Origin: Clostridiales bacterium
GTDB taxonomy: Bacteria; Bacillota; Clostridia; Christensenellales; UBA1242
Assembly: GCA_918285425.1 (NCBI GenBank)
Contig: CAKJZE010000021.1
Coordinates: 1-47,583 of the forward strand
Direction of reading: 5' to 3'
Length of the DNA stretch: 47,583 nt
Part shown: in pieces, positions 6,104 to 28,859 of the stretch
Layout of the letters: each line of letters starts with the position of its first letter
How positions within the stretch are numbered: position 1 is the stretch's first letter
Position numbers and translations under genes: made by a program
The notes under the pieces: generated by a model
What the model was told of the DNA's origin: nothing
Seen by the model: only the letters and a program-made list of their open reading frames with translations
Databases searched by the model: none

Positions 6104-6244
6104 ATAGATATTATTAACTTGGGATTACTTTTTTTATACTATATAATATTTATTTTATTTGTAACTTATCTGTTTTTATGTTATAATTATTTTATCAAAT
6201 GATAAAAATGTATGTTCTTGCACAACATACTTTCAAGAGGAATA

Positions 6245-7075: not shown

Positions 7076-7106
7076 ATTGTTATTTTAAAATAAATAATTA
7101 CTAAAG

Positions 7107-8393: not shown

Positions 8394-8458
8394 AAATAAA
8401 ATTATAAAAATATAAAGTTTAGTGCTTTATATTTTTATTTTTTGTAAATAATTTAAAT

Positions 8459-8770: not shown

Positions 8771-8779
8771 GTATGAATA

Positions 8780-8813
8780 AAAAAAAGACCAAACGTTAAA
8801 GTTTGGTCTTATT
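8780..8813. terminator. Bidirectional terminator
   Basis: agaccaaac-gttaaa-gtttggtct with flanking A and T runs, between convergent genes. Confidence 0.6.
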
Positions 8814-8826
8814 ATTTATACTTTTA

Positions 8827-9696: not shown

Positions 9697-9799
9697 ATAT
9701 CCTCAACTTTATCTTGTGTTTTTATACTATTATTATATACAATTTTGTAAAAAAATCAATTATTTTTTATTAATTGCATCAAAATATGAGCTAAATGCT

Positions 9800-10675: not shown

Positions 10676-10766
10676 TTTTGCCCCCAAATGAAAAAATTTA
10701 CATAATTTTCTGCTTTATTTTATGCAAATCTCAAATTTGTGGTTAAAAATAAAAAAAGTTTTGTTA

Positions 10767-10795
10767 TTGTCTTGATTTTTTGTAAATTTTATAAT
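10767..10795 (+). promoter_or_regulatory. candidate sigma-70 promoter for tRNA-Ser
   Basis: TTGTCT, 17 nt, TATAAT, about 58 nt upstream of the tRNA 5' end. Confidence 0.35.
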
Positions 10796-10853
10796 ATACT
10801 ATGAAAGTCTTGAAGCGGTCATCCCCCCTTTTGACCAATTTAAGATAAAGTTT

Positions 10854-10941
10854 GGAGAGATGGCTGAGCGGTCGAAAGCGGCGGTCTTGAAAACCGTTGA
10901 TGTGCAAGCATCCTGGGGTTCGAATCCCTATCTCTCCGCCA
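10854..10941 (+). tRNA. tRNA-Ser (anticodon UGA), CCA encoded
   Basis: Hand-folded. Acceptor GGAGAGA/TCTCTCC; anticodon stem GCGGT/ACCGT with loop CTTGAAA (anticodon TGA); long variable arm GATG...CATC; T arm TGGGG-TTCGAAT-CCCTA; discriminator G followed by CCA. Confidence 0.92.
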
Positions 10942-12460: not shown

Positions 12461-12462
12461 TT

Positions 12463-13959
12463 CTATTCTCCTTTATTTCGCTTAATTTTTATCAATTGAG
12501 TATATAATTCAGGGTTTCTATGAACTATAATTGCCAAATTAATCCTAGCCCTTGTAATTCCTTGATAAAATAATTTACTGAAAATATAATCTGGATTAGG
12601 GTGTTCTGGTGAATGCAAACGACCATCAATATATTTGAAATTTTGTCCCATAATCATTACAACGTTATCAAACTCTTGTCCAATAACTACATGTGTATTA
12701 TTCTTACTTACAAATTCATCAATTTCATGTCTTTTAAATAATGATGGTGTAAAACTAATATACTGATAATTAATTGTTTCTAAATATTTTACTAATTCGG
12801 AAGCTTCGTTTTTTGTAGATACATAGTAAATTTTAATATGTTCATAGTTTGCGTCTCTTTTTACTTCTGCTAAATTAACTACATTTTTAATAAATGAAGC
12901 TAAATTATAGTTAGTTCTAATTTTATTTGATAAATGGAATTGTTTCAGCTGAGATAACTTATTTATTTTACCATCTATGTCATTTCTGTTTTCCGATTTT
13001 TGAATTAACTGGTCTGTTCCAATTGAAAATATTGCTTTAACATTGTGCTCTTTTACAAAATCTATTAACATTTGAAATTCAGATATATATAATCTTTGAC
13101 TTTCGTCAATTATAAATAAATCATAATTATTTAATTTGCAATAATTAAATTCTTTTGCTGATATTATATCACAATTTTTCATTTTTTTATTTAATTCAAA
13201 ATGGCCAGAGTTTAGTATCCCTGAATGAACAACACAAATCTTAAAATCTTTAGATAATTTTTTTGCAATATCATAAACCAACAATGTTTTTCCAGTTCCA
13301 GCATCTCCCAATATTTTAAAATATGTAAATTGTTTTCTATTATAGATATCATTAATTATATCATTTTTTATTTGTTGTTGTTGATTAGTTAAAAAATATT
13401 CATTATTTAAAAATTTATCAACATTGTTAAAAGGAGATACTAAATAACAAGCTGGTTTGATAATTTTATCTAAATCATTTTCAAAATAGTTATTGGTCAA
13501 ATTTATTATAGATATAAATTCATTTAAATTGGTTTTTTCAAGTTTTAATTGTTCATTTAATTTATAAAATTCATTATCTTTTGCTACAAAAGTAAAAGAA
13601 TACACCTTGCCTCTAACATTTTTCAAATAATAACTATTTTGGATTAATTGTTTTTCAATCTTCTCTGTTGATGTAAATTCTGATTTTATTTCTATATTTA
13701 AAACATAATCATTCAGTATTTTTATCAAGTCAAATTCTTTAGATATTTGGTCAATGGTATAAGAATAATAGAACCCACTCATATATGCAATATTACATTT
13801 AGAATGCATTAAATCAACCAGTTGATATAAATTTTCTCTTTCATATTCTTTAACTTTTATTTGTCTTTTTGAATTTGTTATACAATTTAAATAATCGTTA
13901 AATTCATCATTGCTTAGTGGTTTTGTTTTAGATAATAAAAACAAATTAATTGGAAACAT
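12463..13959 (-). CDS. PD-(D/E)xK nuclease-like N-domain fused to a P-loop/SF1-helicase-like ATPase (DUF2075-like)
   Basis: EFDLIKI...LNIEIKS (D...ExK); Walker A GDAGTGKT; Walker B LFIIDESQRL; C-terminal YQGITRARINLAII. Its TAG stop lies 2 nt before the recombinase ATG, and the recombinase RBS (AAGGAGAA) sits in its last codons. Confidence 0.7.
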   Translation of the reverse strand: MFPINLFLLSKTKPLSNDEFNDYLNCITNSKRQIKVKEYERENLYQLVDLMHSKCNIAYMSGFYYSYTIDQISKEFDLIKILNDYVLNIEIKSEFTSTEKIEKQLIQNSYYLKNVRGKVYSFTFVAKDNEFYKLNEQLKLEKTNLNEFISIINLTNNYFENDLDKIIKPACYLVSPFNNVDKFLNNEYFLTNQQQQIKNDIINDIYNRKQFTYFKILGDAGTGKTLLVYDIAKKLSKDFKICVVHSGILNSGHFELNKKMKNCDIISAKEFNYCKLNNYDLFIIDESQRLYISEFQMLIDFVKEHNVKAIFSIGTDQLIQKSENRNDIDGKINKLSQLKQFHLSNKIRTNYNLASFIKNVVNLAEVKRDANYEHIKIYYVSTKNEASELVKYLETINYQYISFTPSLFKRHEIDEFVSKNNTHVVIGQEFDNVVMIMGQNFKYIDGRLHSPEHPNPDYIFSKLFYQGITRARINLAIIVHRNPELYTQLIKIKRNKGE

Positions 13960-13979
13960 TTATTCTCCTTATAATATCA

Positions 13980-14124
13980 AAGTGGGTATCCCACTTGTGT
14001 AAGCAAATGGGAGTGGTAAAAAATGCAAAAAGAATTGTTGTTCAAAGTGAGTCACCGGAAACGCTTGTTTTTAGGGGCTTTTTCACTTTGAAAATAGCAT
14101 TTTGAACCTACTCTTATCCTGCTT
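13980..14124 (+). repeat. Left copy of the ~145-nt inverted repeat bracketing the R-M operon
   Basis: Matches the reverse complement of 18901-19046 at roughly 85 percent identity by eye. The outer end is the 17-nt palindrome aagtgggtatcccactt. Confidence 0.9.
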
Positions 14125-14164
14125 GGTAAAATTACACTCATATTATAACGCCAATTTAAGAAAA

Positions 14165-14204
14165 TTGCAACAATTTATTCGCAAATACAAATATTTTGTT
14201 GCAA
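14165..14204. promoter_or_regulatory. Perfect 9-bp inverted repeat (candidate operator for the HTH controller)
   Basis: TTGCAACAA (14165-14173) and TTGTTGCAA (14196-14204) separated by 22 nt. The right arm overlaps the predicted -35. Confidence 0.45.
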
Positions 14205-14227
14205 AATTAAAAATAAAGTAGTATACT
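14199..14227 (+). promoter_or_regulatory. candidate promoter of the R-M operon
   Basis: TTGCAA, 17 nt, TATACT, about 30 nt upstream of the HTH gene. Confidence 0.45.
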
Positions 14228-14256
14228 TATCATAGATTATTTAAAGAGGTCTAAAA

Positions 14257-14457
14257 ATGAGTATTTCGTATAACAAACTTTGGAAACTTTTGATTGATAA
14301 AAATATGACAAAAACAGATTTGAGATTGCAAGCTGATATCGCAACTTCCACTCTTGCTAAACTTAGTAAAAACGAACAAGTAAGCATGGAAGTTTTGCTT
14401 AAAATTTGTAAAACACTAGATTGCGATTTTGATGATATAATTGAGAGGGTTGATTAA
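14257..14457 (+). CDS. small HTH (XRE/Cro-like) protein, likely controller (C) protein of the R-M operon
   Basis: 66 aa (MTKTDLRLQADIATSTLAKLSKNEQVSMEVLLKICKTLDCDFDDII). First gene of the operon; its stop lies 1 nt before the methylase ATG. Confidence 0.75.
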   Translation: MSISYNKLWKLLIDKNMTKTDLRLQADIATSTLAKLSKNEQVSMEVLLKICKTLDCDFDDIIERVD

Positions 14458-14458
14458 T

Positions 14459-15370
14459 ATGTGTAAAGGAATTGCAAAACCATTTTTAAAATGGGCTGGC
14501 GGTAAAGGTCAACTGCTTAACAAGTTTGAAGAGATGTATCCACAGGAACTTATAAATGGCGAAATTGACACATACATTGAACCTTTTGTTGGTGGTGGTG
14601 CAGTTTTATTTGATGTCCTTCAAAAATATAAAATTAAAAAAGTGGTTATTGTTGACTTAAACAAAGAACTTGTAAATTGTTATCGTTGTATTAAAGCCGA
14701 TGTAAATGAACTTATAAAACATCTTAAAACTTTGCAAGATGAATTTTTATCACTGAGTGATGAAAAGAGGAAAGATTATTTCTTAAAAGTTAGAAATAGA
14801 TATAATGAAATTCATCTTAATGGGAAATATGATTTTGAAAAAGCCGCAGATTTCATTTTTTTAAATAAAACTTGTTTTAATGGTCTTTATAGAGTAAATA
14901 GCAAAGGTGAATTTAATGTCCCATTCGGTAAATATAAAAATCCATTGATTTGTGATAGCGAGAATTTAACTCTAATAAGCAAACTTTTACAAAATGTAGA
15001 AATAAGATTTGGAGATTATTCTATTTGTGAAGAATATGTAAATGGAAAAACTTTTATATACTTTGACCCACCTTATCGCCCACTTATAGAAAATTCATCA
15101 TTTGTTGGTTATGATAAATCTGGTTTTAATGATGACAATCAAAAAGAACTGGCTGAATTTGTAAAAAAACTTGATAAGCAAAATTGTTTAGTAATGCTTA
15201 GCAATTCAGATCCTAAAAACACTAATCCTGATGATAATTTCTTTGATGAACTTTACAAAGGATTTCAGATTGATAGAATCTTTGCAAAAAGAATGATAAA
15301 TTGCCAAGCAGATAAACGAGGAGATATAACTGAAATTGTTGTAAGAAATTACAAAAGGAGAAAATTTTAA
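14459..15370 (+). CDS. Dam/DpnM-type N6-adenine DNA methyltransferase (GATC class)
   Basis: PFLKWAGGKGQLL N-terminus, motif I EPFVGGGAV, motif IV FDPPY. The ATG at 14459 is preceded by GAGAGG. Confidence 0.88.
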   Translation: MCKGIAKPFLKWAGGKGQLLNKFEEMYPQELINGEIDTYIEPFVGGGAVLFDVLQKYKIKKVVIVDLNKELVNCYRCIKADVNELIKHLKTLQDEFLSLSDEKRKDYFLKVRNRYNEIHLNGKYDFEKAADFIFLNKTCFNGLYRVNSKGEFNVPFGKYKNPLICDSENLTLISKLLQNVEIRFGDYSICEEYVNGKTFIYFDPPYRPLIENSSFVGYDKSGFNDDNQKELAEFVKKLDKQNCLVMLSNSDPKNTNPDDNFFDELYKGFQIDRIFAKRMINCQADKRGDITEIVVRNYKRRKF

Positions 15371-16249
15371 ATGAGAAGTAAAACAATCAATGTTTTCTTA
15401 ATGGACGGAGACCCTACTTGCAAAATAAAATGCACATTGCAAAATTGGACTGGAATAGCTTATAAAATTCCAAGAACAATGCTAGAAGATTGCAAAGAGG
15501 GAGAAAAAGATATAGTTAAACATTTAAAACAGACAGGAATTTATTTTCTATTAGGAGAAGATTCCAATACAGGAAATAAAGCAATTTATGTTGGACAAGC
15601 TGTTTCTAGGAAAAATGGCGAAGGATTACTTTGTAGATTATTAGAACATAAAAGGAATATGAAGGAAAAATATTGGAATGACTGGAATGAAGTTATAGTT
15701 TTTACAACTCAAAATGATTCATTTGGTCCAACAGAAATTAGTTACCTTGAAAATAAATTTACTAATCTTGCTAGAAGTGCTGGAAGATATGAAGTAAAGA
15801 ATGGTAATGAGCCTAACCCAGGTAATATCACAGAAGAAAAAGAAAGTGAACTTTTAGAATATGTGGATTATGCTCGAATTATTATAGGAATGCTTGGACA
15901 TAAAGTTTTTGAACAATTAGTAAAATCAAATCCTCTTACGAATAAAGTTGATAGCCCTATCTTCTATTTTAAAGGCAAAATAAAAGCAACTGGCATTTTT
16001 ACCAATGAAGGTTTTGTCGTATTAAAAGGTTCTTCAATAAGTCCCAAGTTAAATCCAAGTGCACATAAATTCACAATTAAAGCAAGAGAAATGAACAAAA
16101 ACAAAATAGATGAAAATTATATTTTATTAGAAGATGTTTTGTTTACAAGCCCATCAGCAGCAGCCGGATTTGTAGGCGGTTCAAGTTTAAGTGGAAATGC
16201 AATGTGGGTAACAAGTTATGGCAAATCACCAAAAGATGTCGAATTATAA
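15371..16249 (+). CDS. GIY-YIG nuclease domain protein with a C-terminal DUF4357-like domain
   Basis: GIYFLLG...IYVGQA...RLLEH...ISYLE (GIY-YIG). C-terminal FVVLKGS...SPSAAAGFVGGSSLSGNAMW is recalled as the DUF4357 signature. Its ATG directly abuts the methylase stop. Confidence 0.7.
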   Translation: MRSKTINVFLMDGDPTCKIKCTLQNWTGIAYKIPRTMLEDCKEGEKDIVKHLKQTGIYFLLGEDSNTGNKAIYVGQAVSRKNGEGLLCRLLEHKRNMKEKYWNDWNEVIVFTTQNDSFGPTEISYLENKFTNLARSAGRYEVKNGNEPNPGNITEEKESELLEYVDYARIIIGMLGHKVFEQLVKSNPLTNKVDSPIFYFKGKIKATGIFTNEGFVVLKGSSISPKLNPSAHKFTIKAREMNKNKIDENYILLEDVLFTSPSAAAGFVGGSSLSGNAMWVTSYGKSPKDVEL

Positions 16250-16265
16250 AACATAGGAGAACATT

Positions 16266-17123
16266 ATGAAAAGAAATTTTAAAGAATGGTTAAATGATTT
16301 CACAGATAGTATTGCAACTTATGAATACTACACCGAATTTAATATAGTTTATAAAAACATTGATAAACTTAAAGTTGAACTTAACATTATGAATTCTCTT
16401 ATTGGTTCAAAGAATATTGAACAGGATTTTGATAATCTTTTCAAAAAATATCCAGAGATAAGGAAATGTTTGCCACTTCTTATTGCTGTTAGAGAAAATG
16501 AAATTAAAGTTATTGATGAAGGCGAAAAACTTAAATACAACTTCAAAACAATAGATGATATTGATTTACTAAAAAGGTTTATGAGAAAAACTGGGCTTTT
16601 TGACTTAATATCAAATCATTTAGTAAACAATCTTGTCGATTACACTACTGGAGTTGAAGTTGGACTTGGCTCAAATGGAAGAAAAAATCGTGGTGGACAT
16701 CTAATGGAAGATGTATTGCAAGGATATATTGAAAAAGCTGGATTTGTAAAAAATCAAACATATTTCAAAGAAATGTATTTGAGTGATATTGAGAAAAAAT
16801 GGAATATTGATTTATCAAAACTTTCTAATCTTGGCAAGGTAGCAAAAAGATTTGATTATGTTGTAAAAACAAAAAATTGTATTTATGCCTTTGAAACAAA
16901 CTTCTATTCAAGCAATGGCTCAAAATTAAATGAAACTGCAAGAAGCTATAAAATGCTTGCTGAAGAAAGTAAATATATTAAAGGATTTGCTTTTGTTTGG
17001 GTTACTGATGGTTTAGGTTGGCAAGGCGCTAAAAATAATCTTGAAGAAACATTTGATGTTTTAGATAACATCTTCAATCTAAAAGAATTGGAACAAGGTA
17101 AATTAAAGGAAATATTAAAATAA
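16266..17123 (+). CDS. DpnII/MboI-family type II restriction endonuclease (GATC)
   Basis: Long blocks match my recollection of R.DpnII: LNIMNSLIGSKNI, LVDYTTGVEVGLGSNGRKNRGG, GSKLNETARSYKM, WVTDGLGWQGAKNNLEETFD. Confidence 0.85.
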   Translation: MKRNFKEWLNDFTDSIATYEYYTEFNIVYKNIDKLKVELNIMNSLIGSKNIEQDFDNLFKKYPEIRKCLPLLIAVRENEIKVIDEGEKLKYNFKTIDDIDLLKRFMRKTGLFDLISNHLVNNLVDYTTGVEVGLGSNGRKNRGGHLMEDVLQGYIEKAGFVKNQTYFKEMYLSDIEKKWNIDLSKLSNLGKVAKRFDYVVKTKNCIYAFETNFYSSNGSKLNETARSYKMLAEESKYIKGFAFVWVTDGLGWQGAKNNLEETFDVLDNIFNLKELEQGKLKEILK

Positions 17124-17842
17124 TGCAAGAAGAATTTGAACTTGAAACTAACACCGTTTGGAGTTTTCCTAATCGTGGCAAATGGGCAACACATGATGCA
17201 AAATATCGTGGGAATTTTTCGCCCTATGTAGCAAAAAATATAATTTTGAGGTATTCACAACCAAACGATTATGTGTTAGATCAATTTGTTGGTGGTGGCA
17301 CCACTCTTGTCGAATGTAAGTTAAACAATAGAAATGCTATTGGAATTGATATAAACCCTAAAGCTGTTGAATTAACAAAAGAAAAACTTAATTTTGATTG
17401 CAATTTTTCAAACAATATAGAAGTTCAACTTGGCGATGCTTGTAACTTAAAAAATATTGATGACAATAGTATTGATTTAATTTGCACTCATCCACCTTAT
17501 GCAGACATTATCAAATATAGTGATGATATTGATGGCGATTTATCTCACTTAAAATACAAAGAGTTCTTGACTGCAATTGAAAAAGTTGCTAGTGAATGTT
17601 ATAGAGTGCTTAAAAAAGACAAATTTTGTGCTATTGTTATGGGAGATACTAGAAAAAAAGGCATGGTGCAACCACTTGGTTTTGAAGTTATGCAAAGATT
17701 TGTAAATGCCGGCTTTAAACAAAAAGAAATAATTATAAAAGAACAACACAATTGTAAAGCAACAGGTTTTTGGAAAACAAATAGTCAAAAATTTAATTTT
17801 TTACTTTTAGCACATGAATATATTTTTATATTTAAAAAATAA
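17123..17842 (+). CDS. second DNA methyltransferase (motif order X-I-IV, gamma-like)
   Basis: WSFP...THDAKYRGNFSPYVAKNIILRYSQPNDYVLDQFVGGGTT (motifs X and I), then CTHPPYADI (motif IV with His in the usual D/N/S position). Its start overlaps the endonuclease stop by 1 nt. Confidence 0.75.
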   Translation: MQEEFELETNTVWSFPNRGKWATHDAKYRGNFSPYVAKNIILRYSQPNDYVLDQFVGGGTTLVECKLNNRNAIGIDINPKAVELTKEKLNFDCNFSNNIEVQLGDACNLKNIDDNSIDLICTHPPYADIIKYSDDIDGDLSHLKYKEFLTAIEKVASECYRVLKKDKFCAIVMGDTRKKGMVQPLGFEVMQRFVNAGFKQKEIIIKEQHNCKATGFWKTNSQKFNFLLLAHEYIFIFKK

Positions 17843-17850
17843 GGAGAATT

Positions 17851-18894
17851 ATGGAGAAGAAATTTTCAAGTTCAAAAGGCCTTTCAAAATCGTTAATGTT
17901 TGAATGGGTGGTTCGAAGAATACTTGAAGAACAGTATGTTGTCAATACAGTGGATCAAACTTTAAATGGATTCGATTTAAAAACTGTTGATAATATCAAT
18001 ATAGAAATAAAATATACAACAAGAAGCAACTTGTTGAGTTTTGTAAATTCTTTAAAGTTTTTTATAGAAACTCATCCAAATTACGCACTCGAACGAATAA
18101 TTTTTATAACAAGTTCTATTTGTGAAGATGTATTTTCTAATCAAAATAAAAGTGATGAAGTTAAATCACTTAACATTATTTCATTGGAAAATCTAATCTA
18201 TTTATGTAAAGATAATGATAATTTACTATCTCAATTAAAAATGTGTTTAAATTTTTCAACAGAAAATATAAAACCAATACCTCTTGATGAAAACGTTCAA
18301 AAATTATTACAACCTTCAAAAAAAGAAAACTTTAAAAAAGTTGAGAATATTGATTATTATAATAAATTAATATCAATTCCTCATGGCCGAAATCATTTTT
18401 CGCAATATGAAAAATTCTGTGAGGATTTTATTAAAACCATTTTTCAAGATAATATTGAGGACCCTATTCCACAAAAAATTAACAATCAAGGCTTATATAG
18501 GTTTGATTTAGTAGCAGCATTAAAATCAGAAGCAAAAAGTTTTTGGAAATTTATATACGATAAATATAATTCATGTTTCATTTTGTTTGATTGCAAAAAT
18601 TATACAGGGACAATTGAACAAGAAGAAATTTATTCAACAGAGAGATATTTATATAATAATGCTTTAAGAAATGTAGGTATTATACTATCCAGAAAAGGGG
18701 CTTCTCTTCATGCCAAAATTGCCTGCCAAGGTATTCTTAAAGAACATGGCAAATTAATATTAGTTCTTGATGACAATGATATGAAAGAATTAGAAATCTT
18801 ATATAAAAATAATAAAAAAGGCATTGACTACCCGACTCCATCAGATTTTTTATTTGATAAGGCAAAAGACTTTTTGTTAAATTTAGACAAATAA
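17851..18894 (+). CDS. hypothetical protein with two PD-(D/E)xK-like motifs (restriction-endonuclease-like)
   Basis: GFDLKTVDNINIEIKY near the N-terminus and YRFDLV...FILFDCKNY in the C-terminal half. AAGGAG RBS. Last gene of the operon, ending 6 nt before the right inverted repeat. Confidence 0.5.
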   Translation: MEKKFSSSKGLSKSLMFEWVVRRILEEQYVVNTVDQTLNGFDLKTVDNINIEIKYTTRSNLLSFVNSLKFFIETHPNYALERIIFITSSICEDVFSNQNKSDEVKSLNIISLENLIYLCKDNDNLLSQLKMCLNFSTENIKPIPLDENVQKLLQPSKKENFKKVENIDYYNKLISIPHGRNHFSQYEKFCEDFIKTIFQDNIEDPIPQKINNQGLYRFDLVAALKSEAKSFWKFIYDKYNSCFILFDCKNYTGTIEQEEIYSTERYLYNNALRNVGIILSRKGASLHAKIACQGILKEHGKLILVLDDNDMKELEILYKNNKKGIDYPTPSDFLFDKAKDFLLNLDK

Positions 18895-18900
18895 AATAGT

Positions 18901-19046
18901 AAGCAGGATAAGAGTGGATTCAAAATGCCATTTTCAAAGTAAAAAAGTCCCTAAAAACAATAGTTTCCAGTGACTCACTTTGAACAACAATTCCTTTTGG
19001 CATTTTTACCCACTCCCTTTTTAGCAAGCAAGTGGGATACCCACTT
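18901..19046 (-). repeat. Right copy of the ~145-nt inverted repeat bracketing the R-M operon
   Basis: Reverse complement of 13980-14124. The outer palindrome aagtgggatacccactt (19030-19046) is followed here by a T-run, so on the plus strand it doubles as a terminator for the operon. Confidence 0.9.
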
Positions 19047-19171
19047 CTTTTTTTATATAAACTAGTGAAAATTTTTAATTTATATGTTATAATATGAACG
19101 GCACTTATCCGAGAGTGCCACGGATTAAAGTCAATTGTTGCTATATGCTTTTTGTATAATGCAAAAAGTGT

Positions 19172-19411
19172 ATGAAGAAAACAATTGATGAACAATGTTT
19201 TATTGATTGTGTAAATATAGATGAAAACACTGCTACTTACAACTTTAACACAAAAATATTAAAGCAAGGCAAAGTAAATATGTCCCAAAAGCAAATAAAC
19301 CATATCGGTTCTATTCTTGCAACTGACTTAAAAAACTTTGCAGAAAGTAATGGCGACTTTTCAAATCTAACAGCAAATGAAGTTTATACTCATTTGTTGG
19401 ATAATCAATAA
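19172..19411 (+). CDS. hypothetical 79-aa protein (gene X)
   Basis: No clear Shine-Dalgarno sequence. Its last 10 codons recur at 22493-22522 with only synonymous differences, which supports real coding. Confidence 0.5.
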   Translation: MKKTIDEQCFIDCVNIDENTATYNFNTKILKQGKVNMSQKQINHIGSILATDLKNFAESNGDFSNLTANEVYTHLLDNQ

Positions 19412-19511
19412 ACATTGCAAAGAAGAAGTTGAAAAAACTTCTTCTTTTTTTTGTTAGACTCTATAAATTTCTATTTAATTGTGCTATAATGATAATTAGT
19501 GAGGAGCACAT
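19370..19511 (+). repeat. 5' junction element, copy a (gene X 3' end + terminator + promoter + RBS)
   Basis: Aligns collinearly with 22481-22621 at about 70 percent identity by eye, up to the start codon of the downstream gene. Confidence 0.75.
19421..19452 (+). terminator. Terminator after gene X
   Basis: agaagaagtt-gaaaa-aacttcttct followed by a T-run. Confidence 0.75.
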
Positions 19512-21683
19512 ATGATTAATAAAATTGAGTTAAACAATATTGCTACATATAAGCATTGTGAAATATATCCTAAAAAAATTAATTATATTTATGGAGGTAA
19601 TGGCACAGGCAAAACTTCAATATCAAAATTTTTAGCAAATCCAGTAAATTATCCTACAAGCAATTTGACCACAGAAAATTATCCAATTGATATACTTGTA
19701 TATAATAAAGACTTTATAGAAGATAATTTTGATAAGGATAAATCAATAAAGGGAATATTTACAATTGGAGAAGAAAATAAAGAAATAGAAGAAAATATAA
19801 ACAAATTGTTAATAAAAAAAGAAGAAATCGAAAAACAAAAAACTATACGCATTAATAAAATTGAAGAATTTACCGAGAATGCAAAAACCTTGCATAACGA
19901 ATTTTGTAATAATTGTTGGACAATAAAAAAAGTTGCAGAACCATATAAAAAATCTATAAGTGGTGTTTTAAATTCTAGAGAAGCATTTGCCGAAATGTGC
20001 GATAAGAACTTTTTAAATACAAAAACAACGACAGAACTTGGTTCATTTGATGAAAGATACAAAATGCTATATGAGACACATATGCAAGTATATAATAAGT
20101 TTTCAGAATTAGAATTTACAAGATTATCTGAAATTGAAAACAATTCTCTATTAAATAAAAGTATCATAGCAAAGGAAGATAATCCACTGTCGTCTATAAT
20201 TCAAAAGTTAAACAATAGTGACTGGATTAAACAAGGTGTAGAATATTTAGATAGCACTCATAACATTTGCCCATTTTGTCAAAGAGAACTAACAGCCAAA
20301 ACGATAAAGGATTTAGAGAATTTATTTGATGAAGAATATGACAAAAATATGAATGAATTAAAAACACTAAACGATGAATATCAGAAATTATCAAATAGTT
20401 TAATTCTCAATATGGAAAATGTTGCTCAAACTTCTTATCAAATATTAGATTATTCAGGCATAAGTACATTATTATTAGAAATAAAGTCTGTAATAAAAGA
20501 CAATATAAAGCTTTTAAATGATAAAATAAAGTTTCCTTCAAATAAGATTGAATTAAATAAAACTAATAATTTATTGAACCAAATAAATTCTGTGATTAAA
20601 GAATACAATAGAATAATTAAAAGAAATAATGAACTATCTTCTAAGCAATTACAAGAAAAGAATAAGTTAAGCAATGATATATGGCAAGCGATTTCAAATA
20701 ATTATCTTTATGAAACCATAAATGAATATAGGAAAAAGAGTGAAGGAATTAAATCTGCGACTCATAAAATGATGATGGAAAGAGACTCTTATGCTCAAGA
20801 CATTGCCGAAATAGAAATAGAGATTAACAATTTGCAATCCAAAGTATCTACTATTGACAACGCGATTAATGAAATAAATAAAATATTAAAAGGGTTTGCT
20901 TTTACAGGTTTTTATTTGCGTAAAGCTAAAGATAATAGAAATTATGAAATAATTCGCGAAGATGGGAGTAATGCAAAAGATACATTAAGTGAGGGTGAAG
21001 AACGTTTTATTACATTTCTCTATTTTATTCAATTAATAAATGGCAATGTAGAAAATAAAAGAACAATAAATAAAAAAGTTGTAGTAATAGATGACCCCAT
21101 TTCAAGTCTTGATAGCAATATTATATTTATTGTAAGTTCTCTTGTAAAAGAGATTATAAACAATTGCATCAATAGCAACAATTTAATAGATCAAGTTATA
21201 GTATTAACACATAACATCTATTTTCATCATCAAATTAGTTTCAGACCAAAAAGTAATCAATTGTCACCTAATTTGTTTTCATTTTTTACAATCCATAAAA
21301 AAGATAATCTTTCAACAATTGAACAATCTCAAAAGAATTTGATTCAAACATCATATGAACTTTTATGGCAGGAAATAAAGCAGCCAGAAATAACAAGTAG
21401 GGCTAATATATTCAACTCAATGAGAAGAATTTTAGAATATTATTTTGATATTATTGGTGGGTTAGACTATGATAATCTTATATCTACATTTACCGGCGAA
21501 GACAAAATTATTTGTAATTCTTTAATTTCTTTTGTAAATGCTAATTCACATTCTATTGCAGATGATTTTGTTATTGGATTTAGTGAAGAAGATATAGACA
21601 AATATTTAGTTGTCTTTAAAAAAATATTTATTAATAGTAATCATAAAGCACATTACGAAATGATGATGTCTAGAGAATACTAA
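19512..21683 (+). CDS. RloC/PrrC-like anticodon nuclease (AAA_13-type ABC-like ATPase with zinc-hook coiled coil)
   Basis: Walker A GGNGTGKTS; long Lys/Glu/Asn-rich coiled coil containing CPFC; LSEGEERF signature; Walker B VVVIDDPISSLD; LTHN; C-terminal MRRILEYYF ... NANSH, resembling the PrrC Arg-Glu-His nuclease triad. Confidence 0.7.
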   Translation: MINKIELNNIATYKHCEIYPKKINYIYGGNGTGKTSISKFLANPVNYPTSNLTTENYPIDILVYNKDFIEDNFDKDKSIKGIFTIGEENKEIEENINKLLIKKEEIEKQKTIRINKIEEFTENAKTLHNEFCNNCWTIKKVAEPYKKSISGVLNSREAFAEMCDKNFLNTKTTTELGSFDERYKMLYETHMQVYNKFSELEFTRLSEIENNSLLNKSIIAKEDNPLSSIIQKLNNSDWIKQGVEYLDSTHNICPFCQRELTAKTIKDLENLFDEEYDKNMNELKTLNDEYQKLSNSLILNMENVAQTSYQILDYSGISTLLLEIKSVIKDNIKLLNDKIKFPSNKIELNKTNNLLNQINSVIKEYNRIIKRNNELSSKQLQEKNKLSNDIWQAISNNYLYETINEYRKKSEGIKSATHKMMMERDSYAQDIAEIEIEINNLQSKVSTIDNAINEINKILKGFAFTGFYLRKAKDNRNYEIIREDGSNAKDTLSEGEERFITFLYFIQLINGNVENKRTINKKVVVIDDPISSLDSNIIFIVSSLVKEIINNCINSNNLIDQVIVLTHNIYFHHQISFRPKSNQLSPNLFSFFTIHKKDNLSTIEQSQKNLIQTSYELLWQEIKQPEITSRANIFNSMRRILEYYFDIIGGLDYDNLISTFTGEDKIICNSLISFVNANSHSIADDFVIGFSEEDIDKYLVVFKKIFINSNHKAHYEMMMSREY

Positions 21684-21792
21684 CTATTGTTTTCACCCAC
21701 CCAGCGCCTACAAATATTCTAGGGTTAGGATTGGATTGCGCCCGCTCCGCCAATCGTAACCTAAATCGAACCACTCGATTTGGGTTTATTTT
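21684..21792 (+). repeat. 3' junction element R1 (conserved ~65-nt core + private terminator hairpin)
   Basis: Starts at the stop codon of 19512-21683. Core ...CCACCCAGCGCC..TAGGGTTAGGATTGGAT..GCTCCGCCA. Hairpin 21758-21769/21775-21786 followed by a T-rich tail. Confidence 0.85.
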
Positions 21793-21812
21793 ATATCTTA
21801 GGGGGTATTTCG

Positions 21813-22433
21813 ATGTATCATTTTGGTGTACTTGTTAGTGAAAATTAAAAGCTTACGAGAGAAAAATACATAAATTATTATAAAGAAAATAAGCAGCAAT
21901 TTACATTAGAAGATATTCTTTACAACTATGATCTTAATATTGATTATTACAATAATCTTAATAAAGTAGATTTTGATAAAGAATTAAATAGGTTTTTCAA
22001 TAAGTTTAAAAGATTTAGAGAAATATATGATTTACAAGAATGCAATTGTGACGGTTTTTATATAATGATTTTGGATAATTATAAGCAAGTATATATTGGT
22101 ATTGCTGATAATATTAAGAAACGTATTTTACAGCATTGGAAAAACAGTCCTAATACTATGATTGTTGGCACAAAAAACAACTCTAAATTATGCATCGATT
22201 CTTTCAAAGCATTGGATACAACAAGAATTTTTGTCTATACAAATGAACAATTTGCAATTAACGTAAGAAATGCTAATCTGATTATGGAAGATGAAAAAAA
22301 TAGTCATTTAATAAAACACGTTTCAGAAACCTTGGAAGATGAAGAAAATAAAATGATTAAATATTTTAACAACAAATATACATGTAATAGATTTGCACGA
22401 CTAATCATGAAATCATTCTATAGAGATTTTTAA
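21813..22433 (+). pseudogene. GIY-YIG nuclease gene interrupted by an in-frame TAA at 21846-21848
   Basis: AGGGGG RBS, then ATG at 21813 encoding MYHFGVLVSEN, then TAA. The same frame then stays open for 195 codons, through GFYIMILDNYKQVYIGIADNIKKRILQHW (GIY...YIG...R...H). There is no ATG/GTG/TTG between 21849 and the ATG at 22065, and that ATG lies inside the GIY motif. Confidence 0.7.
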
Positions 22434-24278: not shown

Positions 24279-24734
24279 ATGAAAAATAAAGTGGGGCAAT
24301 ATGGCGTCATAAACAAAACTGGAAAAATTGGCAGTTCTGCTGTATTGTACAAAACTACAGATCCCGAATTTTGGAAAAATATAGAAAAGGGTATAAAATC
24401 ATCTGTAAAATCCGTAATTAATATTGGCTATGAAACATATAGTTCATGCCAAGGCCATAGAGGTACATTATATAATAAAAGGACTTTAACCGTTATTTTG
24501 TCAAATGAAGAAATAGATATTTGGATTTATTTTTTAGATACTTTAAATATTTTCTTTTTGACAGATCATCCAATTACATATCTTTTAATTCCAAAAAGTG
24601 ATAACAAAACAAATATCATGATTAATTTTGGAGATATTGAAAACAAAAAATGTGTAAAAATTAATCAGAAATATTTTAATAAGTTTGTGACAGTAATAAA
24701 TAAGCTCAAATTTGTTTGCGATGATATTTCTTGA
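24279..24734 (+). CDS. hypothetical protein (151 aa) upstream of the radical SAM gene
   Basis: ORF only. The start is uncertain (track start 24246 is non-ATG) and the RBS is weak. No motif recognised. Confidence 0.4.
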   Translation: MKNKVGQYGVINKTGKIGSSAVLYKTTDPEFWKNIEKGIKSSVKSVINIGYETYSSCQGHRGTLYNKRTLTVILSNEEIDIWIYFLDTLNIFFLTDHPITYLLIPKSDNKTNIMINFGDIENKKCVKINQKYFNKFVTVINKLKFVCDDIS

Positions 24735-24759
24735 CTAAATGTATCAGATGATGTATAAT
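24731..24759 (+). promoter_or_regulatory. near-consensus sigma-70 promoter for the radical SAM gene
   Basis: TTGACT (24731-24736), exactly 17 nt, TATAAT (24754-24759). Confidence 0.65.
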
Positions 24760-24785
24760 GTTACTGTTGTATTTGAGGATAAAAT

Positions 24786-25895
24786 ATGAAAAAATTTAAA
24801 AGTTTAAATGTATTAATAAAACCAACTAATGGTTGTAATTTAAGATGTAAATATTGCTTTAATAATGAATATTCTACAGAAATGTTGAATATGAATGATT
24901 TTAAAAAACTCATATCTTTGTTAACAAAAAGATACAATAGTATAAGTATAATTTGGCATGGCGGCGAACCTACATTGTGGGGCTATGAAAATTTTAAAAA
25001 GGCAAATGATATTATAAAAAAATATTCTAAAAAAACAAAATTTTATCAGTGTATTCAATCTAATTGCGTTCATATTGATGATAAATTAATTGATTTCTTC
25101 ATTGAAAATAATATTTCAATTGGTTCATCTTTTGATGGAATTGATAATGACAAAACAAGAGGTTGTACAACGCAATATCTAAATACGATTGAAAAGTTAA
25201 ATAATAAAGGTATGCATGTGGGTGCTATCTGTGTAATAACACAACAAAATATAAATTCATTGTTGGATAATTATAATTATTTTAAACAAAGAAACCAATC
25301 CCTTAATTTAAGACCTATGATTAATTCAGGAGAAGCATTAAAAAATGCAGATGTTTATTCTGTGGATATAGAAGCATATATAGATAGTTTAAAAAAACTA
25401 CTTGAAGTATGGTTTTATGATACAACTTGCAATATTAAATTGCAACCATTCGAAACATTTTTGAATATGTTATTATACAAAAAAACATCAGTTTGCTGTT
25501 ATAATTCTTGTTTAACAAAGTGGCTCTGTCTTGAATCAAATGGTGATATTACACCATGTAACAGATGGTTCCCTTCAGAATATAAATATGGGAATATTAA
25601 AGAAATAAAATCTATCAAACAAATTTTTAAATCTGAAGGTTTAAAAAATCTTCTTGTTAAAGCTATTAAAAGAAGAGAAAAGTGTAAAGAGAATTGTGAA
25701 TATTTTGATGTTTGCAATGGTGGTTGTAATAATGAAGCACTTGTAAGTGGTGATATATCAAATAATGATATGCCAACATGTAAAATATTAAAAGCAATAA
25801 TACCCGATCTTAAGATATTAATTTCAAATGTAGAGGATATAAATAAGATTAATCCAAAAATTAAAGAGAGAGTGGGAAAATACATTAATCAGTAA
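24786..25895 (+). CDS. radical SAM enzyme with C-terminal SPASM-type auxiliary cluster domain (peptide maturase type)
   Basis: CNLRCKYC (CxxxCxxC) at residues 17-24. C-terminal Cys-rich region: CCYNSC...CLESNGDITPC...CKENCEYFDVCNGGC. Confidence 0.88.
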   Translation: MKKFKSLNVLIKPTNGCNLRCKYCFNNEYSTEMLNMNDFKKLISLLTKRYNSISIIWHGGEPTLWGYENFKKANDIIKKYSKKTKFYQCIQSNCVHIDDKLIDFFIENNISIGSSFDGIDNDKTRGCTTQYLNTIEKLNNKGMHVGAICVITQQNINSLLDNYNYFKQRNQSLNLRPMINSGEALKNADVYSVDIEAYIDSLKKLLEVWFYDTTCNIKLQPFETFLNMLLYKKTSVCCYNSCLTKWLCLESNGDITPCNRWFPSEYKYGNIKEIKSIKQIFKSEGLKNLLVKAIKRREKCKENCEYFDVCNGGCNNEALVSGDISNNDMPTCKILKAIIPDLKILISNVEDINKINPKIKERVGKYINQ

Positions 25896-25926
25896 TTTTT
25901 TTTAAAATGAAAAACATATAAATCAG

Positions 25927-25956
25927 TTGACAAAATGATAGTTTTAATGGTAAACT
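25927..25956 (+). promoter_or_regulatory. candidate promoter in front of the precursor genes
   Basis: TTGACA, 18 nt, TAAACT, about 20 nt upstream of an AAGGAG RBS. Confidence 0.5.
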
Positions 25957-25978
25957 TTGCAAGTAAGGAGAAGAAATT

Positions 25979-26143
25979 ATGTTTAGTATTAAAAATTTAA
26001 TTAAAAAATATAAAAAGCAATCATTAAAATTAGCGTATGCATATAATGATAGTGGAAAACACACAGATCACGAAGATCATATCGATCATGATACACGTTT
26101 GGGTCACGTTGATCATGATGATCATACGGATTGGACTGATTAA
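25979..26143 (+). CDS. 54-aa putative RiPP precursor peptide 1 (His/Asp-rich core); not in the ORF track
   Basis: AAGGAG 7 nt upstream of the ATG. Product: MFSIKNLIKKYKKQSLKLAYAYNDSGKHTDHEDHIDHDTRLGHVDHDDHTDWTD. Its leader is shared with the next ORF. Confidence 0.7.
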   Translation: MFSIKNLIKKYKKQSLKLAYAYNDSGKHTDHEDHIDHDTRLGHVDHDDHTDWTD

Positions 26144-26174
26144 TTTCAAAATATTACATTATGGAGAACTTACT

Positions 26175-26300
26175 ATGTTTAATTTCAAAAAGCTATTAAA
26201 AAAATATAATAAACAAATATTAAAACCAGCTTATACAAATTGCAATTTTGAGCATGTAGATCACGATGCTCAATTTGGTCATATTGATAATGGCCAATAG
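26175..26300 (+). CDS. 41-aa putative RiPP precursor peptide 2
   Basis: GGAGAA RBS 8 nt upstream of the ATG at 26175. Product: MFNFKKLLKKYNKQILKPAYTNCNFEHVDHDAQFGHIDNGQ. The track shows it only as the tail of an 87-aa ORF starting at 26037, whose N-terminal part overlaps peptide 1 out of frame. Confidence 0.7.
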   Translation: MFNFKKLLKKYNKQILKPAYTNCNFEHVDHDAQFGHIDNGQ

Positions 26301-26346
26301 TATAATAATTTGGAATTGTTATAACAATAAAATCAAAAATAAATAT

Positions 26347-26378
26347 AAAAACAAGCATTTTTATATGCTTGTTTTTTG
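26347..26378. terminator. Bidirectional terminator
   Basis: aaaacaagcat-ttttat-atgcttgtttt with flanking A and T runs, between convergent genes. Confidence 0.75.
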
Positions 26379-26395: not shown

Positions 26396-27052
26396 TTAAT
26401 TGGATCTTATTTTTATTTTGTATAAAATAAGAGAAGTAAGATATCCAAAACTCATGACAATGATGCCGCATACAAATGCAATAAGCAAGCCTTTTTGTGC
26501 AAAGGCGTACCAATCATAGTAAAGGTCAACGCTGCCATTATTAAAGTGAGAGCATACAACACTGAGATAAAAGATTGCATATAAAGTGAGATGTGAAATC
26601 CCCCAAAGTGAATCCTTAAGTTTGAACTTTTGTGTGTTTTCATAAAAGACAAAGCTTATCAAATTAAGAACTGGTATTGCAAAGTGGTAAAAGAAGTTGG
26701 CGTTCGCGTACATAGAGAAATAGCCTTCTTCCACTATAAAGCCAAGGAACAGGGCAACCACAAGGAAGGTTATAATAAGGTCAACAGTTGCAATATATCT
26801 TAAAATGTTTATGGTTTTTGGAATAACCTTTTTTGTTTTGTTTTCACGCAGCAGAAAGATTATATACAAAAGGGAAGTGATACCGGCAAGCACATTGGAT
26901 TGAACGGTGAAAAATTTAAACAATTTGAATCCATGCTCAATTGGCTTGGTTGCAACAATATATATTTCGCCAAAGCAAAAAATACTTCCCACAACTGCCA
27001 TGACAAAAATTATAATATTTAAAACTAATGCTATCTTTTGTTTTTTATTCAT
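26396..27052 (-). CDS. polytopic membrane protein (Pr6Pr-family-like)
   Basis: Six or so hydrophobic segments. The FTVQSNVL motif is recalled from the Pr6Pr family. Confidence 0.55.
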   Translation of the reverse strand: MNKKQKIALVLNIIIFVMAVVGSIFCFGEIYIVATKPIEHGFKLFKFFTVQSNVLAGITSLLYIIFLLRENKTKKVIPKTINILRYIATVDLIITFLVVALFLGFIVEEGYFSMYANANFFYHFAIPVLNLISFVFYENTQKFKLKDSLWGISHLTLYAIFYLSVVCSHFNNGSVDLYYDWYAFAQKGLLIAFVCGIIVMSFGYLTSLILYKIKIRSN

Positions 27053-27227
27053 AACAAGTTAATTGTAAAATAAATTTCTTAAGCTTGTCAATAATAAAAT
27101 TGAAAAATTGTATTGAGTTTTTATGTATTGATTTAATTATAATATAAATTCAAGTTCTGATATTTTTATAAAAAACATGACAATACTATTATTTGGTGCT
27201 ATAATAAGGATCAAAGGTAATTATCAT

Positions 27228-27539
27228 ATGAAAGTCAGAATTGTATTATCAGGACTGGGTAGACTTGAAACATTTATTATTAAAGAAGAAAATTCAAGTT
27301 TTATTTCGCCATCAGTATCTAGAAATATTGATACTGAAAAATTTTTTATTGAATTTAGAGAGGTAATTAAAAATTGGCCTGAAGAAATGGAAAATGGCTC
27401 TGTTCAAGATGGTTTAAATTGTGTGATTATGTTTAAAGATAATGACGAGCATGTGTTTATGTTCAACAATAAATTCCCAGATAATTTTGAAAAATTAGTA
27501 AATCTATTAAGGAGTTATGAAAATGGCAGCATTAACTAA
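27228..27539 (+). CDS. hypothetical protein (103 aa)
   Basis: ATG at 27228 after AAAGG. Upstream promoter-like ATGACA, 17 nt, TATAAT. Confidence 0.45.
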   Translation: MKVRIVLSGLGRLETFIIKEENSSFISPSVSRNIDTEKFFIEFREVIKNWPEEMENGSVQDGLNCVIMFKDNDEHVFMFNNKFPDNFEKLVNLLRSYENGSIN

Positions 27540-28830
27540 AGAGGGTATAAAAAATATAAGAGAAAGCATAATTGGTGATGATAAAAAACAATTGATTCAG
27601 GATAAGATTGCTAAATATTATATATCTATTGAAGAGAGTAAAGGTAAACCTGTTTCTGAGGAAAGAAAAACAGAAATAAACAACAATGTTCAAAAAATTG
27701 TTCAAAATATCAAGTACACAGTTATACCTATCAATGTTGGAGAATTTAATATAAATAGTTTCATCTCAAAACAACAAGGTTTAACGACAGAGCAAAAAAC
27801 TGAATTATCAAGTAATGCTGAGAGTATAATGAGAACTTATAGCAGTAAAAGTCCAGTAAAAATTTTCAAAGACAATGTTGTCGAAGCTTTTGGCTACAAA
27901 AAGGAAGATTTATATATTAAAGAACCTGGAATGATAATGACAAGACCTGGGCCTAAATATGAAGAGTTTATGACTTTAATGAAAAATATAGTAGAGGCAA
28001 ATACCGATCCGACAAACAATTCTGGAATGGAACACGATATCAATGTTATTGCTCAAGAATATAATAAAAATCCTATGTCAATACAAAACTACTTTAGCCA
28101 ATTAAGGAATCATAATTCTGGTGGATATTGCGATCAAAGGGAATCATATGAACCGATTGAAATAGTTATCAATGCGGGTGGCAATACTGCAATTTCAACT
28201 GTAGTACATGAAACTATGCATGCTATGTCATATCATAGTTATCCTGATGGTTCTTGTAAGTCAGGCTTTAATACTTCAGCTGAAAAAAATCAATATGGAT
28301 ATAGAAAATATCAGCTTTTTAATGAAGTTGTGAATGAATATTTGACACAGAAAGTTATGGGTAATTTTTCTGATGAAGATTGCGCAAAGTTTGGTATACA
28401 TAAAGAAAGTAAAAACGTTTATCAACAACTTATACCTCTTGTAAGTGATGTGCTTGACAAAAATGAAAATTTACTTATAGATTGTTTACTTTCTAATAAT
28501 CCTATGAAATTTAAAGAGATCATAGGTCATGAAAATTTTGAAACAATTGTGGATAAACTTACACTCATTGATGGTAAATTCAATTTTAAATATTATGGAA
28601 ATGAAAATCAAACATTGATTGATCTTTGTGAAAGTAAAGTGAGTCAAAACCCAAATTTTCAAATAGGTGATGAAAAATTTTCAATATCATCTGTTAAAAA
28701 TAATCTTGATTTTTTTAAATCCACTTTTTCAGGAAATAAAGAAATAATGGAAGTATTAAATGCCATTTCAGACCTTGACAATACATGTAAAAAAGTCAAT
28801 AGTAACAATACAAGTTTTGAAATGGAGTAA
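27523..28830 (+). CDS. hypothetical protein with an HExxH zinc-metallopeptidase-like motif
   Basis: VVHETMHAMSYH. AAGGAG 8 nt before the ATG at 27523. Overlaps the upstream ORF by 17 nt. Confidence 0.55.
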   Translation: MAALTKEGIKNIRESIIGDDKKQLIQDKIAKYYISIEESKGKPVSEERKTEINNNVQKIVQNIKYTVIPINVGEFNINSFISKQQGLTTEQKTELSSNAESIMRTYSSKSPVKIFKDNVVEAFGYKKEDLYIKEPGMIMTRPGPKYEEFMTLMKNIVEANTDPTNNSGMEHDINVIAQEYNKNPMSIQNYFSQLRNHNSGGYCDQRESYEPIEIVINAGGNTAISTVVHETMHAMSYHSYPDGSCKSGFNTSAEKNQYGYRKYQLFNEVVNEYLTQKVMGNFSDEDCAKFGIHKESKNVYQQLIPLVSDVLDKNENLLIDCLLSNNPMKFKEIIGHENFETIVDKLTLIDGKFNFKYYGNENQTLIDLCESKVSQNPNFQIGDEKFSISSVKNNLDFFKSTFSGNKEIMEVLNAISDLDNTCKKVNSNNTSFEME

Positions 28831-28859
28831 TTTTAAATAGGATTAACAAGGAGTAAAAT

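Follow-up and report, generated by a model that had tools for sequence, protein, structure and literature searches.

What is made by a gene set in which a radical S-adenosylmethionine (SAM) enzyme is followed by two small open reading frames (ORFs) whose products begin alike and then run into series of His-x-Asp triads? We address this question for a locus on contig CAKJZE010000021.1 of a Clostridiales bacterium (assembly GCA_918285425.1); the whole stretch analysed, 47,583 nucleotides (nt) long, is referred to here as the window. Four tightly packed + strand genes between positions 24279 and 26376 encode a 151-amino acid (aa) protein, the radical SAM enzyme and the two small ORFs, here called peptide 1 and peptide 2 (Table 1). 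The cassette belongs to a family in gut Clostridia and their phages that is real and previously undescribed. We consider it probable that the locus is a compact module of three to four genes for a peptide that is made ribosomally and modified after translation (RiPP), in which a triceptide- or dynobactin-like maturase would place one His-to-Asp/Asn β-carbon crosslink in each triad.

Precursor peptides and their triad rule

Both small ORFs are real genes under purifying selection. A metagenomic contig (L001) encodes an enzyme 75% identical to that of the window, with the same two peptides downstream. Between these two loci, peptide 1 as a whole has a non-synonymous divergence (pN) of 0.16 and a synonymous divergence (pS) of 0.75, and its leader alone shows 10 synonymous and 2 non-synonymous changes. 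Peptide 2 gives dN 0.06 and dS 0.81, and the enzyme gene pN 0.14 and pS 0.71. The intergenic spacers share just 29–57% identity; the −35 hexamer TTGACA and the AAGGAG ribosome-binding site (RBS) before peptide 1 are kept in L001 within a spacer that is itself only 57% identical.

The leader of peptide 1 comprises residues 1–20 and contains L7-x3-Y11-x2-Q14. The two peptides agree at 13 of their first 20 residues, a likeness already seen in a first reading of the letters (hereafter the original prediction), which had counted 14. Beyond the leader, the core of peptide 1 holds H28TD, H31ED and H34ID back to back, then H43VD, H46DD, H49TD and W52TD, together with Y22ND, so that there are two unbroken triad runs (HTD-HED-HID, and HVD-HDD-HTD followed by WTD). 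The core of peptide 2 contains H27VD and H36ID plus Y20TN, as well as one Cys, and its DAQ-x-GHIDN segment is common to the single precursors of L002 and P0125-P0130. Peptide 1 has six H-x-[DN] triads, where shuffling its core gives 1.9 (p = 0.0004); for peptide 2 by itself, two such triads compared with 0.6 after shuffling do not reach significance (p = 0.10). Scanning all six frames of the window recovers the leader motif in these two ORFs only, and at least three H-x-[DN] triads within 32 residues in peptide 1 only.

The same rule holds across the precursor family, to which a profile built from the peptides added ∼30 further members. L7, Y11 and Q14 of the leader (L-x3-Y-x2-Q) are nearly invariant, and NCBIfam and Pfam contain no model for this motif. 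In 24 distinct precursors, 101 of the 110 core His residues are followed at position +2 by Asp (71) or Asn (30), where composition alone (26% of core residues are Asp or Asn) would predict far fewer. The +1 position is free and may be D, T, I, V, N, L, P, S, C or E. Some relatives carry Tyr or Trp in place of the triad His, e.g. the L014 core YYDYSDYSDSD, the precursor core YPEYGEYSEYLDYHDYSD of phage L175 and the core WDEWDEVDYGDTWDEYDNYTEWDE of phages L173 and L174. One common subfamily has the core HENGHDNSGGHPDYHC[ND]QHDNTP, and a single 90% cluster within it has 82 members on 28 contigs. The original prediction had described the parts beyond the leader as His/Asp-rich tails; the variable core is confirmed, and the description is replaced by a strict series of aromatic-x-Asp/Asn triads. 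Such a strict triad points to three-residue cyclophane-type crosslinking. Thioether chemistry of the sactipeptide or ranthipeptide kind, discounted from the outset for peptide 1, is rejected for that peptide because it contains no Cys; peptide 2 has one.

Enzyme–precursor coupling in other genomes

A protein search returned 240 relatives of the enzyme at E < 1e-10, almost all of them from metagenomes, mostly Logan/ENA animal-gut assemblies and GTDB metagenome-assembled genomes (MAGs); a JGI metagenome scan gave a single relative above 30% identity. A same-strand small ORF lies beside the enzyme gene in ∼17 independent contexts, which span 31–75% enzyme identity. Every relative with at least 37% identity whose context was read has such an ORF directly adjoining it, upstream or downstream (L001, L002/3, L004-7, L168, L169, L170, L171/172, L188/189, the Mediterraneibacter MAG L008 and the Bacilli MAG L009). 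The arrangement recurs in several relatives at 31–36% identity: L190/191, whose precursor ORF lacks annotation; L192/193, which has two precursors in tandem; L194/195; the Christensenella MAG L014; and the viral contig L175. We also scanned 193 loci with a regular expression that required the leader and four or more aromatic-x-acidic/amide triads. It matched 19 of them, all with a radical SAM enzyme at least 34% identical to that of the window and with the peptide on the same strand as the radical SAM gene, and none of ∼170 loci with more distant enzymes resembling the anaerobic sulfatase-maturating enzymes (anSMEs). Only the enzyme and its precursor or precursors are constant among the family loci; no protease or exporter travels with them. 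The small ORFs are thus conserved next to homologous enzymes in ∼17 contexts, and the originally proposed layout of a conserved leader, a variable core and an adjacent radical SAM/SPASM maturase is supported by other genomes.

Related loci show other gene arrangements. Two Clostridia MAGs (L010, 3081-6596; L011, 3072-6606) with enzymes 32–36% identical to that of the window have no precursor-like ORF; they are flanked by genes for a 309-aa protein (beginning MFGYFRPY and containing CxxCYC motifs) and a ∼480-aa membrane protein, and this branch may have a different function. The archaeal enzymes of L013, L015, L017 and L018 (Methanomethylophilaceae/Methanomassiliicoccales MAGs; ∼31% identity) are preceded by Cys-rich proteins of 98–135 aa ending in NGFNGAWTYWP[FN], which probably represent another class of substrate for this enzyme superfamily. 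In the HxN-type subfamily (core HENGHDNSGGHPDYH), the enzyme is always directly followed by a conserved 187-aa gene starting xxYVYHGS (L009 5102-5662, L171 5101-5664, L188 4101-4664) that is unrelated to the 151-aa protein of the window. The IMG/VR contigs L177-L182 carry two tandem radical SAM genes at ∼29% identity and no His-x-Asp peptide; a small conserved ORF of 82–102 aa, starting MPELTPRLGLKKP / MAEFTPRLKLRLF, follows the pair.

Enzyme domains, fold and model scores

The enzyme carries CNLRCKYC (CX3CX2C) at residues 17–24, as well as CLESNGDITPC and CKENCEYFDVCNGGC, as expected from the N-terminal radical SAM triad and C-terminal Cys-rich SPASM region first described in this ORF. Thirty relatives all retain the SPASM cysteines C237, C242, C258, C300, C304, C310 and C314; C332 is almost invariant. 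The NCBIfam SPASM domain model scores above its cutoff (41 bits versus 27). The protein has neither a RiPP recognition element (RRE) domain nor an N-terminal extension. Its AlphaFold2 model has a predicted local distance difference test (pLDDT) score of 88.7, and the best fold match of this model is anSME (template modelling (TM) score 0.79), followed by the multiple-cyclophane synthase ChlB (TM 0.73).

No curated NCBIfam family cutoff is reached by the window enzyme or by any of 30 family members tested, and the profile check therefore assigns the enzyme neither to the sulfatase maturases nor to another curated family. The best-scoring curated model is DynA (NF041298), at 175 bits versus a cutoff of 450, and DynA is likewise the top curated model in all 30 family members. 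Next come the anSME model TIGR03942 (166 bits versus 349; E 4e-60), TIGR04083 (156 versus 300) and NF010321 (133 versus 441); all 30 family members likewise stay far from the anSME cutoff. DarW and DarE score 125 and 112 bits (cutoff 650 each), and, for sactipeptide and ranthipeptide systems, the PapB, StsB and SCIFF models score 44–71 bits, far under their cutoffs.

The sulfatase-maturase question and an active-site residue

Of all ORFs of at least 100 aa in the 47.6-kb window, none was found by Pfam to contain a sulfatase domain. In a profile alignment to 4K36, the anSME sequence PC-D-F lies opposite PC-N259-R260 of the window enzyme. Asn259 is the residue after the auxiliary-cluster-I cysteine and is followed by the invariant Arg260; the aligned anSME residue is Asp277, the proposed catalytic base in anSMEcpe. 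We reject a sulfatase-maturase role for the window enzyme: the window has no sulfatase, the scores are below cutoff and the catalytic Asp is replaced. The original prediction had named membership of the anSME family together with a nearby sulfatase as evidence against a RiPP locus; what we found is sub-cutoff scores and no sulfatase in the window.

The residue at this position varies with the type of core. An Asn-Arg pair accompanies HxD-only cores (the window, L001, L002, P0004, L004, L168, L169, L170 and L192), an Asp-Arg pair accompanies HxN-containing cores (L008, L009, L171, L188, L190 and L194), and a Gly-Arg pair accompanies Tyr/Trp-x-acidic cores (L014, L175 and L174). The archaeal clade with Cys-rich partners has Ala/Gly-Lys. 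The fusion enzyme P0279 (see next section) is also Asp-Arg; it is known from the protein alone and has no precursor type assigned. Among the 120 best relatives the pairs number 53 (NR), 18 (DR), 16 (GR), 12 (AK) and 10 (GK). This covariation between residue and core is as expected if the triad occupies the site of β-hydrogen abstraction in anSME. It also parallels the way in which one residue, D214 in HtkB and H204 in HaaB, has been shown to switch specificity (PMC11499958).

The 151-aa partner protein

The gene upstream of the enzyme was correctly placed in the original prediction, and its treatment as an unrelated unknown does not hold, as homologues are fused to family enzymes. Among 1.84 billion representative proteins, searched exhaustively, it has only 50 relatives; five are fusions with radical SAM/SPASM enzymes, and both orders occur: enzyme then partner domain in P0279 and P0293, domain then enzyme in P0309 and P0313, with P0286 a fragment. 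Within P0279, the enzyme portion shares 39% identity with that of the window (E 4e-86). Conversely, the enzyme relative P0028 carries the partner domain C-terminally (38% identity, E 9e-18), and its locus, L194, has a typical precursor upstream. In L190/L191, a homologue covering the full length (34% identity) is encoded directly downstream of the family enzyme. The L190 locus (3001-5812) contains two radical SAM genes with the partner homologue between them, preceded by an unannotated precursor ORF at ∼2752-2950.

These fusions and neighbourhoods indicate that the 151-aa protein is a partner of the enzyme and founds a new domain family. It accompanies a minority of the family, three of the ∼17 loci that were read. 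Its AlphaFold2 model (pLDDT 95.2) has no significant fold match in PDB (best E 0.075, TM at most 0.37) and no informative one in BFVD, and its sequence has no match in Pfam, NCBIfam, PHROG, PADLOC or PDB. Across the family, F31, E36, C57, G59 and H60 are invariant, and the motif T-x-SSC[QE]GH is shared. The invariant Glu and Cys-x-x-His suggest a metal site or a catalytic centre; the partner may supply a metal site, carry out a second catalytic step or handle the substrate.

Comparison with known systems

Triceptides are defined by the motif omega1-X2-X3, in which a radical SAM enzyme joins the aromatic ring to the β-carbon of residue 3. The characterised His motifs HAA, HNR, HTK and HAS all have His-C2-to-Cβ links, and enzyme plus precursor suffices in the characterised cases (PMC11499958, PMC12912966). 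We compared the window family with HaaB, HtkB, YhhB, MicB, ChlB, XyeB, GrrM/OscB and FxsB. Both groups have an RRE-less, full-SPASM, anSME-related enzyme and cores of aromatic-X-X triads, often several, with His, Tyr or Trp as the first residue, and ChlB is the second-best fold match of the window enzyme. Unlike the triceptide systems, the window family lies under every named cyclophane-synthase cutoff, nearly always has Asp or Asn as the third residue, sets its triads back to back, uses a leader (L-x3-Y-x2-Q) that lacks an NCBIfam or Pfam model, resides in uncultured gut Clostridia, Bacilli and their phages, and has a new partner domain that is at times fused to the enzyme.

DynA, DarE and DarW likewise join an aromatic side chain to the β-carbon two residues away, a His link included, and enzyme plus precursor is enough; DynA itself forms a Trp-Asn C–C link and a His-Tyr N–C link (PMC10288494). 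The window precursors are unrelated to that of DynA, with no W-N-S-N-V-H-S-Y-R-F-type core, and the host is Gram-positive. Moreover, DynA, DarE and DarW have one bicyclic heptapeptide to decapeptide, whereas the window family has many repeated triads.

The enzyme shares with anSME (TIGR03942; PDB 4K36-4K39) its fold, the three-cluster cysteine pattern and the lack of an RRE. It differs in an invariant Trp-His before GGEP, where anSME has Phe-Gln, and in its substrate, which is evidently the co-encoded peptide. The archaeal family TIGR04083 is the third-best model, and archaeal relatives ∼31% identical to the window enzyme also have a substrate-like gene co-encoded upstream; these relatives differ in their Cys-rich 98–135-aa partners and in an Ala/Gly-Lys pair instead of Asn/Asp-Arg. 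The His-Xaa-Ser system combines a radical SAM/SPASM enzyme with HxsA, a peptide of repeated His-x-small-polar triads, and includes the paired radical SAM proteins HxsB and HxsC and further genes. The window locus has one radical SAM gene and none of the paired enzymes or further genes, and the HxsB model scores 64 bits versus a cutoff of 370.

Proposed chemistry and rival explanations

In the RiPP module that we favour, the RRE-less, anSME-fold maturase would recognise the leader L-x3-Y-x2-Q common to both peptides and would act on every aromatic-x-Asp/Asn triad of the core. A 5′-deoxyadenosyl radical would take a β-hydrogen from the Asp or Asn at i+2, and the carbon radical would add to the imidazole of His i, either at C2, the site used in the triceptides HAA, HTK and HNR, or perhaps at Nε, as in dynobactin; an electron would then pass to the auxiliary clusters. 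Each triad would give one three-residue ring (−2 Da), with up to 7–8 rings in two back-to-back blocks in peptide 1 and 2–3 rings in peptide 2. The 151-aa protein would work with the enzyme. For the crosslink chemistry, the ring number and the role of the partner, we infer from gene anatomy, comparison and covariation.

Several observations weigh against this chemistry. No protease, exporter or immunity gene is encoded in the window; the lack of a dedicated protease or exporter had been correctly noted in the original prediction. Enzymes 30–36% identical to that of the window occur in L010, L011, L012 and L016 with no such peptide. The models of characterised enzymes score low: AmcB 96 bits versus 425, GrrM/OscB 88 versus 310, YhhB 83 versus 445, FxsB 50 versus 370 and XyeB 39 versus 450. 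The covariation between residue and core may in part be due to common descent within a few clades. Finally, the characterised His motifs are HAA, HNR, HTK and HAS, none of which combines His with Asp or Asn at X3 (PMC11499958, PMC12912966).

The nearest rival keeps the RiPP module and changes the bond, to a link between an imidazole nitrogen and the β-carbon (N–C) like that between His6 and Tyr8 in dynobactin. In all 30 family members tested, DynA is the curated model with the highest score, and it is reported to form an N–Csp3 His-Tyr link across three residues (PMC10288494). However, its 175 bits are far below 450, the anSME and TIGR04083 models score almost equally, and the His three-residue motifs characterised in PMC11499958 and PMC12912966 are all C2 to Cβ, and we regard a nitrogen link as unlikely. 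A reading without rings would have the Asp/Asn or His modified by β-carbon oxidation (dehydro, oxo or aminomalonate-type), epimerisation or methylation, with the His-x-Asp spacing serving metal binding. His/Asp-rich sequences are typical metal ligands, and the closest solved structure is anSME. Yet Tyr and Trp replacing the first-position His are more readily explained by an aromatic crosslink partner than by a metal ligand, the strict i/i+2 spacing around an unconstrained middle residue is the cyclophane signature, and the anSME catalytic Asp is not conserved; a ring-free product thus seems improbable to us.

The remaining explanation takes the enzyme for an ordinary anaerobic sulfatase maturase, or for some other protein modifier, and the small ORFs for products of chance in AT-rich DNA. 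The matches to TIGR03942 and to the anSME structure are strong in absolute terms. However, 166 bits stand against a cutoff of 349, no sulfatase is found in window ORFs of at least 100 aa, and Asp277 is replaced; the small ORFs, for their part, are under purifying selection and conserved beside the enzyme in many genomes. We find this explanation barely tenable.

Locus layout and sequence signals

The positions of the promoter-like sites, RBSs and three ORFs given in the original prediction were correct on re-reading the sequence (Table 1), as was the layout of enzyme and peptide 1, with a gap of 83 nt in place of the 84 nt first stated. The promoter-like site before the enzyme gene has a −35 hexamer that includes the TGA stop codon of the 151-aa ORF. 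The two promoter-like sites in Table 1 are the top + strand sigma-70-like matches in the region; such matches are common in this AT-rich DNA (15 seen versus 21.7 expected from shuffles). Terminator-like sites number four, versus 0.6 expected. A Shine-Dalgarno-like sequence lies 7–10 nt 5′ of each of the four genes. The convergent membrane protein gene was considered as a system component and rejected: it is left out because its synteny is limited to L001 (77% identity), and it is absent from the other family loci.

Table 1. Features of the cassette and of the AT-rich region upstream (window coordinates)
Feature	Position	Strand	Remarks
151-aa partner protein	24279-24734	+	ATG at 24279; start agrees with homologue N-termini
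Promoter-like TTGACT-17-TATAAT, 5′ of enzyme gene	24731-24759	+	11/12 consensus match only
Radical SAM/SPASM maturase, 369 aa	24786-25895	+	Pfam Radical_SAM and NCBIfam SPASM domain
Promoter-like TTGACA-18-TAAACT with TG extension, 5′ of precursor 1	25927-25956	+	10/12 consensus match
Precursor peptide 1, 54 aa	25979-26143	+	Leader and triad core; AAGGAG upstream
Precursor peptide 2, 41 aa	26175-26300	+	Same leader motif; GGAG upstream
Terminator-like bidirectional hairpin, 12-bp stem, T-runs on both sides	26347-26376	.	Ends cassette and convergent 218-aa gene
Predicted membrane protein, 218 aa, convergent neighbour	26396-27052	-	No Pfam match
Large serine recombinase	10928-12460	-	Overlaps tRNA-Ser
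AbiO/Nhi-like protein	12463-13959	-	E 1e-139
DpnII-type restriction–modification system with Dam-like and N6_N4 methylases	14441-17842		
PDC-S06/AAA_13 protein	19512-21683		E 8e-231
122-aa GIY-YIG ORF	22065-22433		Matches C-terminal part of UzuA only

Genomic surroundings and mobile elements

The GC profile bears out an AT-rich island with the cassette at its distal end: GC is 0.22–0.31 over ∼11–29 kb, compared with ∼0.35 outside. The AT-rich region starts at a tRNA-Ser gene (10854-10941), and its part from 10854 to 22433 is a defence island (Table 1). An attachment-site search found no repeat of the tRNA-Ser 3′ end of at least 12 nt between 21.5 and 31 kb. L001 keeps the order of enzyme, two peptides, membrane protein and short-chain dehydrogenase. 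Relative to L001, the window has an extra 1.75 kb (27100-28854) with overlapping ORFs of 120 and 437 aa that have no family match. GltX relatives place the host within uncultured Clostridia, with the nearest named proteins 59–65% identical to the window GltX, and the window proteins are singletons in the protein collection.

Cassettes of this family often lie on prophages, mobile elements and defence islands. The prophage-like contig L175 (IMGVR_UViG_3300037044_000078, 4850-10822) encodes a 45-aa Tyr-x-Glu/Asp precursor and a radical SAM enzyme immediately 5′ of a holin, an endolysin and a pair of serine integrases, where cargo usually lies. L174 (IMGVR_UViG_3300029256_000096, 1002-7568), and also L173 and L176, carry an Amidase_3 endolysin, a family enzyme (36%) and an overlapping 1550-aa ORF. 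The N-terminus of this ORF is a run of Trp/Tyr-x-Asp/Glu triads (MKMSNNFNEYNCWDEWDEVDYGDTWDEYDNYTEWDE...) and its C-terminal part matches FAD_oxidored (E 4e-23); here a large protein may have the substrate region fused to it. L170 is a phage- or satellite-like region with a terminase small subunit, HNH, D5 primase and VRR-NUC. The cassette adjoins Rep, integrase and PcfK genes in L004, a type I restriction specificity gene in L190 and a ribosomal protein operon in L188. In L169 (1-3721) the family locus directly follows a set of ThiF-like, AAA ATPase, unknown and ClpP-like genes, which may be a conflict system of its own.

A bolder extension of the favoured module, which we hold to be rather unlikely though worth stating, is that the family makes a new imidazole-to-acidic/amide β-carbon crosslink in uninterrupted runs of fused rings, assisted by a new-fold Glu/Cys/His partner, and that in some phages the enzyme modifies the N-terminus of the 1550-aa protein. 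The product would then serve within the cell in phage–host or element–host conflict or in metal handling. Because the cassettes are carried on prophages, satellites and defence islands and have no exporter, the product would act inside the cell and not as a secreted antibiotic.

Significance of the family

A full-text literature search, with coverage that does not extend to the 2022 triceptide landscape, found no paper on His-x-Asp/Asn radical SAM RiPPs. NCBIfam, Pfam, PHROGs and PADLOC hold no model for the enzyme clade, the precursor family or the partner domain; the enzyme clade may already be an uncharacterised node in published similarity networks. If the favoured module is correct, its precursors would follow a simple sequence rule, namely the leader L-x3-Y-x2-Q plus aromatic-x-Asp/Asn triads, and the Asn, Asp or Gly at the anSME Asp277 position would be a candidate specificity determinant usable for engineering. 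Peptides with up to 7–8 contiguous strained rings, made by one enzyme, would be of interest to macrocycle biocatalysis, and the partner would be a new domain with no recognisable fold relative. The recurrent location of the cassettes on prophages, satellites and defence islands, where no exporters accompany them, raises the question of what use the peptides are to mobile elements. The family would then be an uncharacterised branch of cyclophane-forming radical SAM enzymes in anaerobic gut Clostridia and Bacilli and in their phages.

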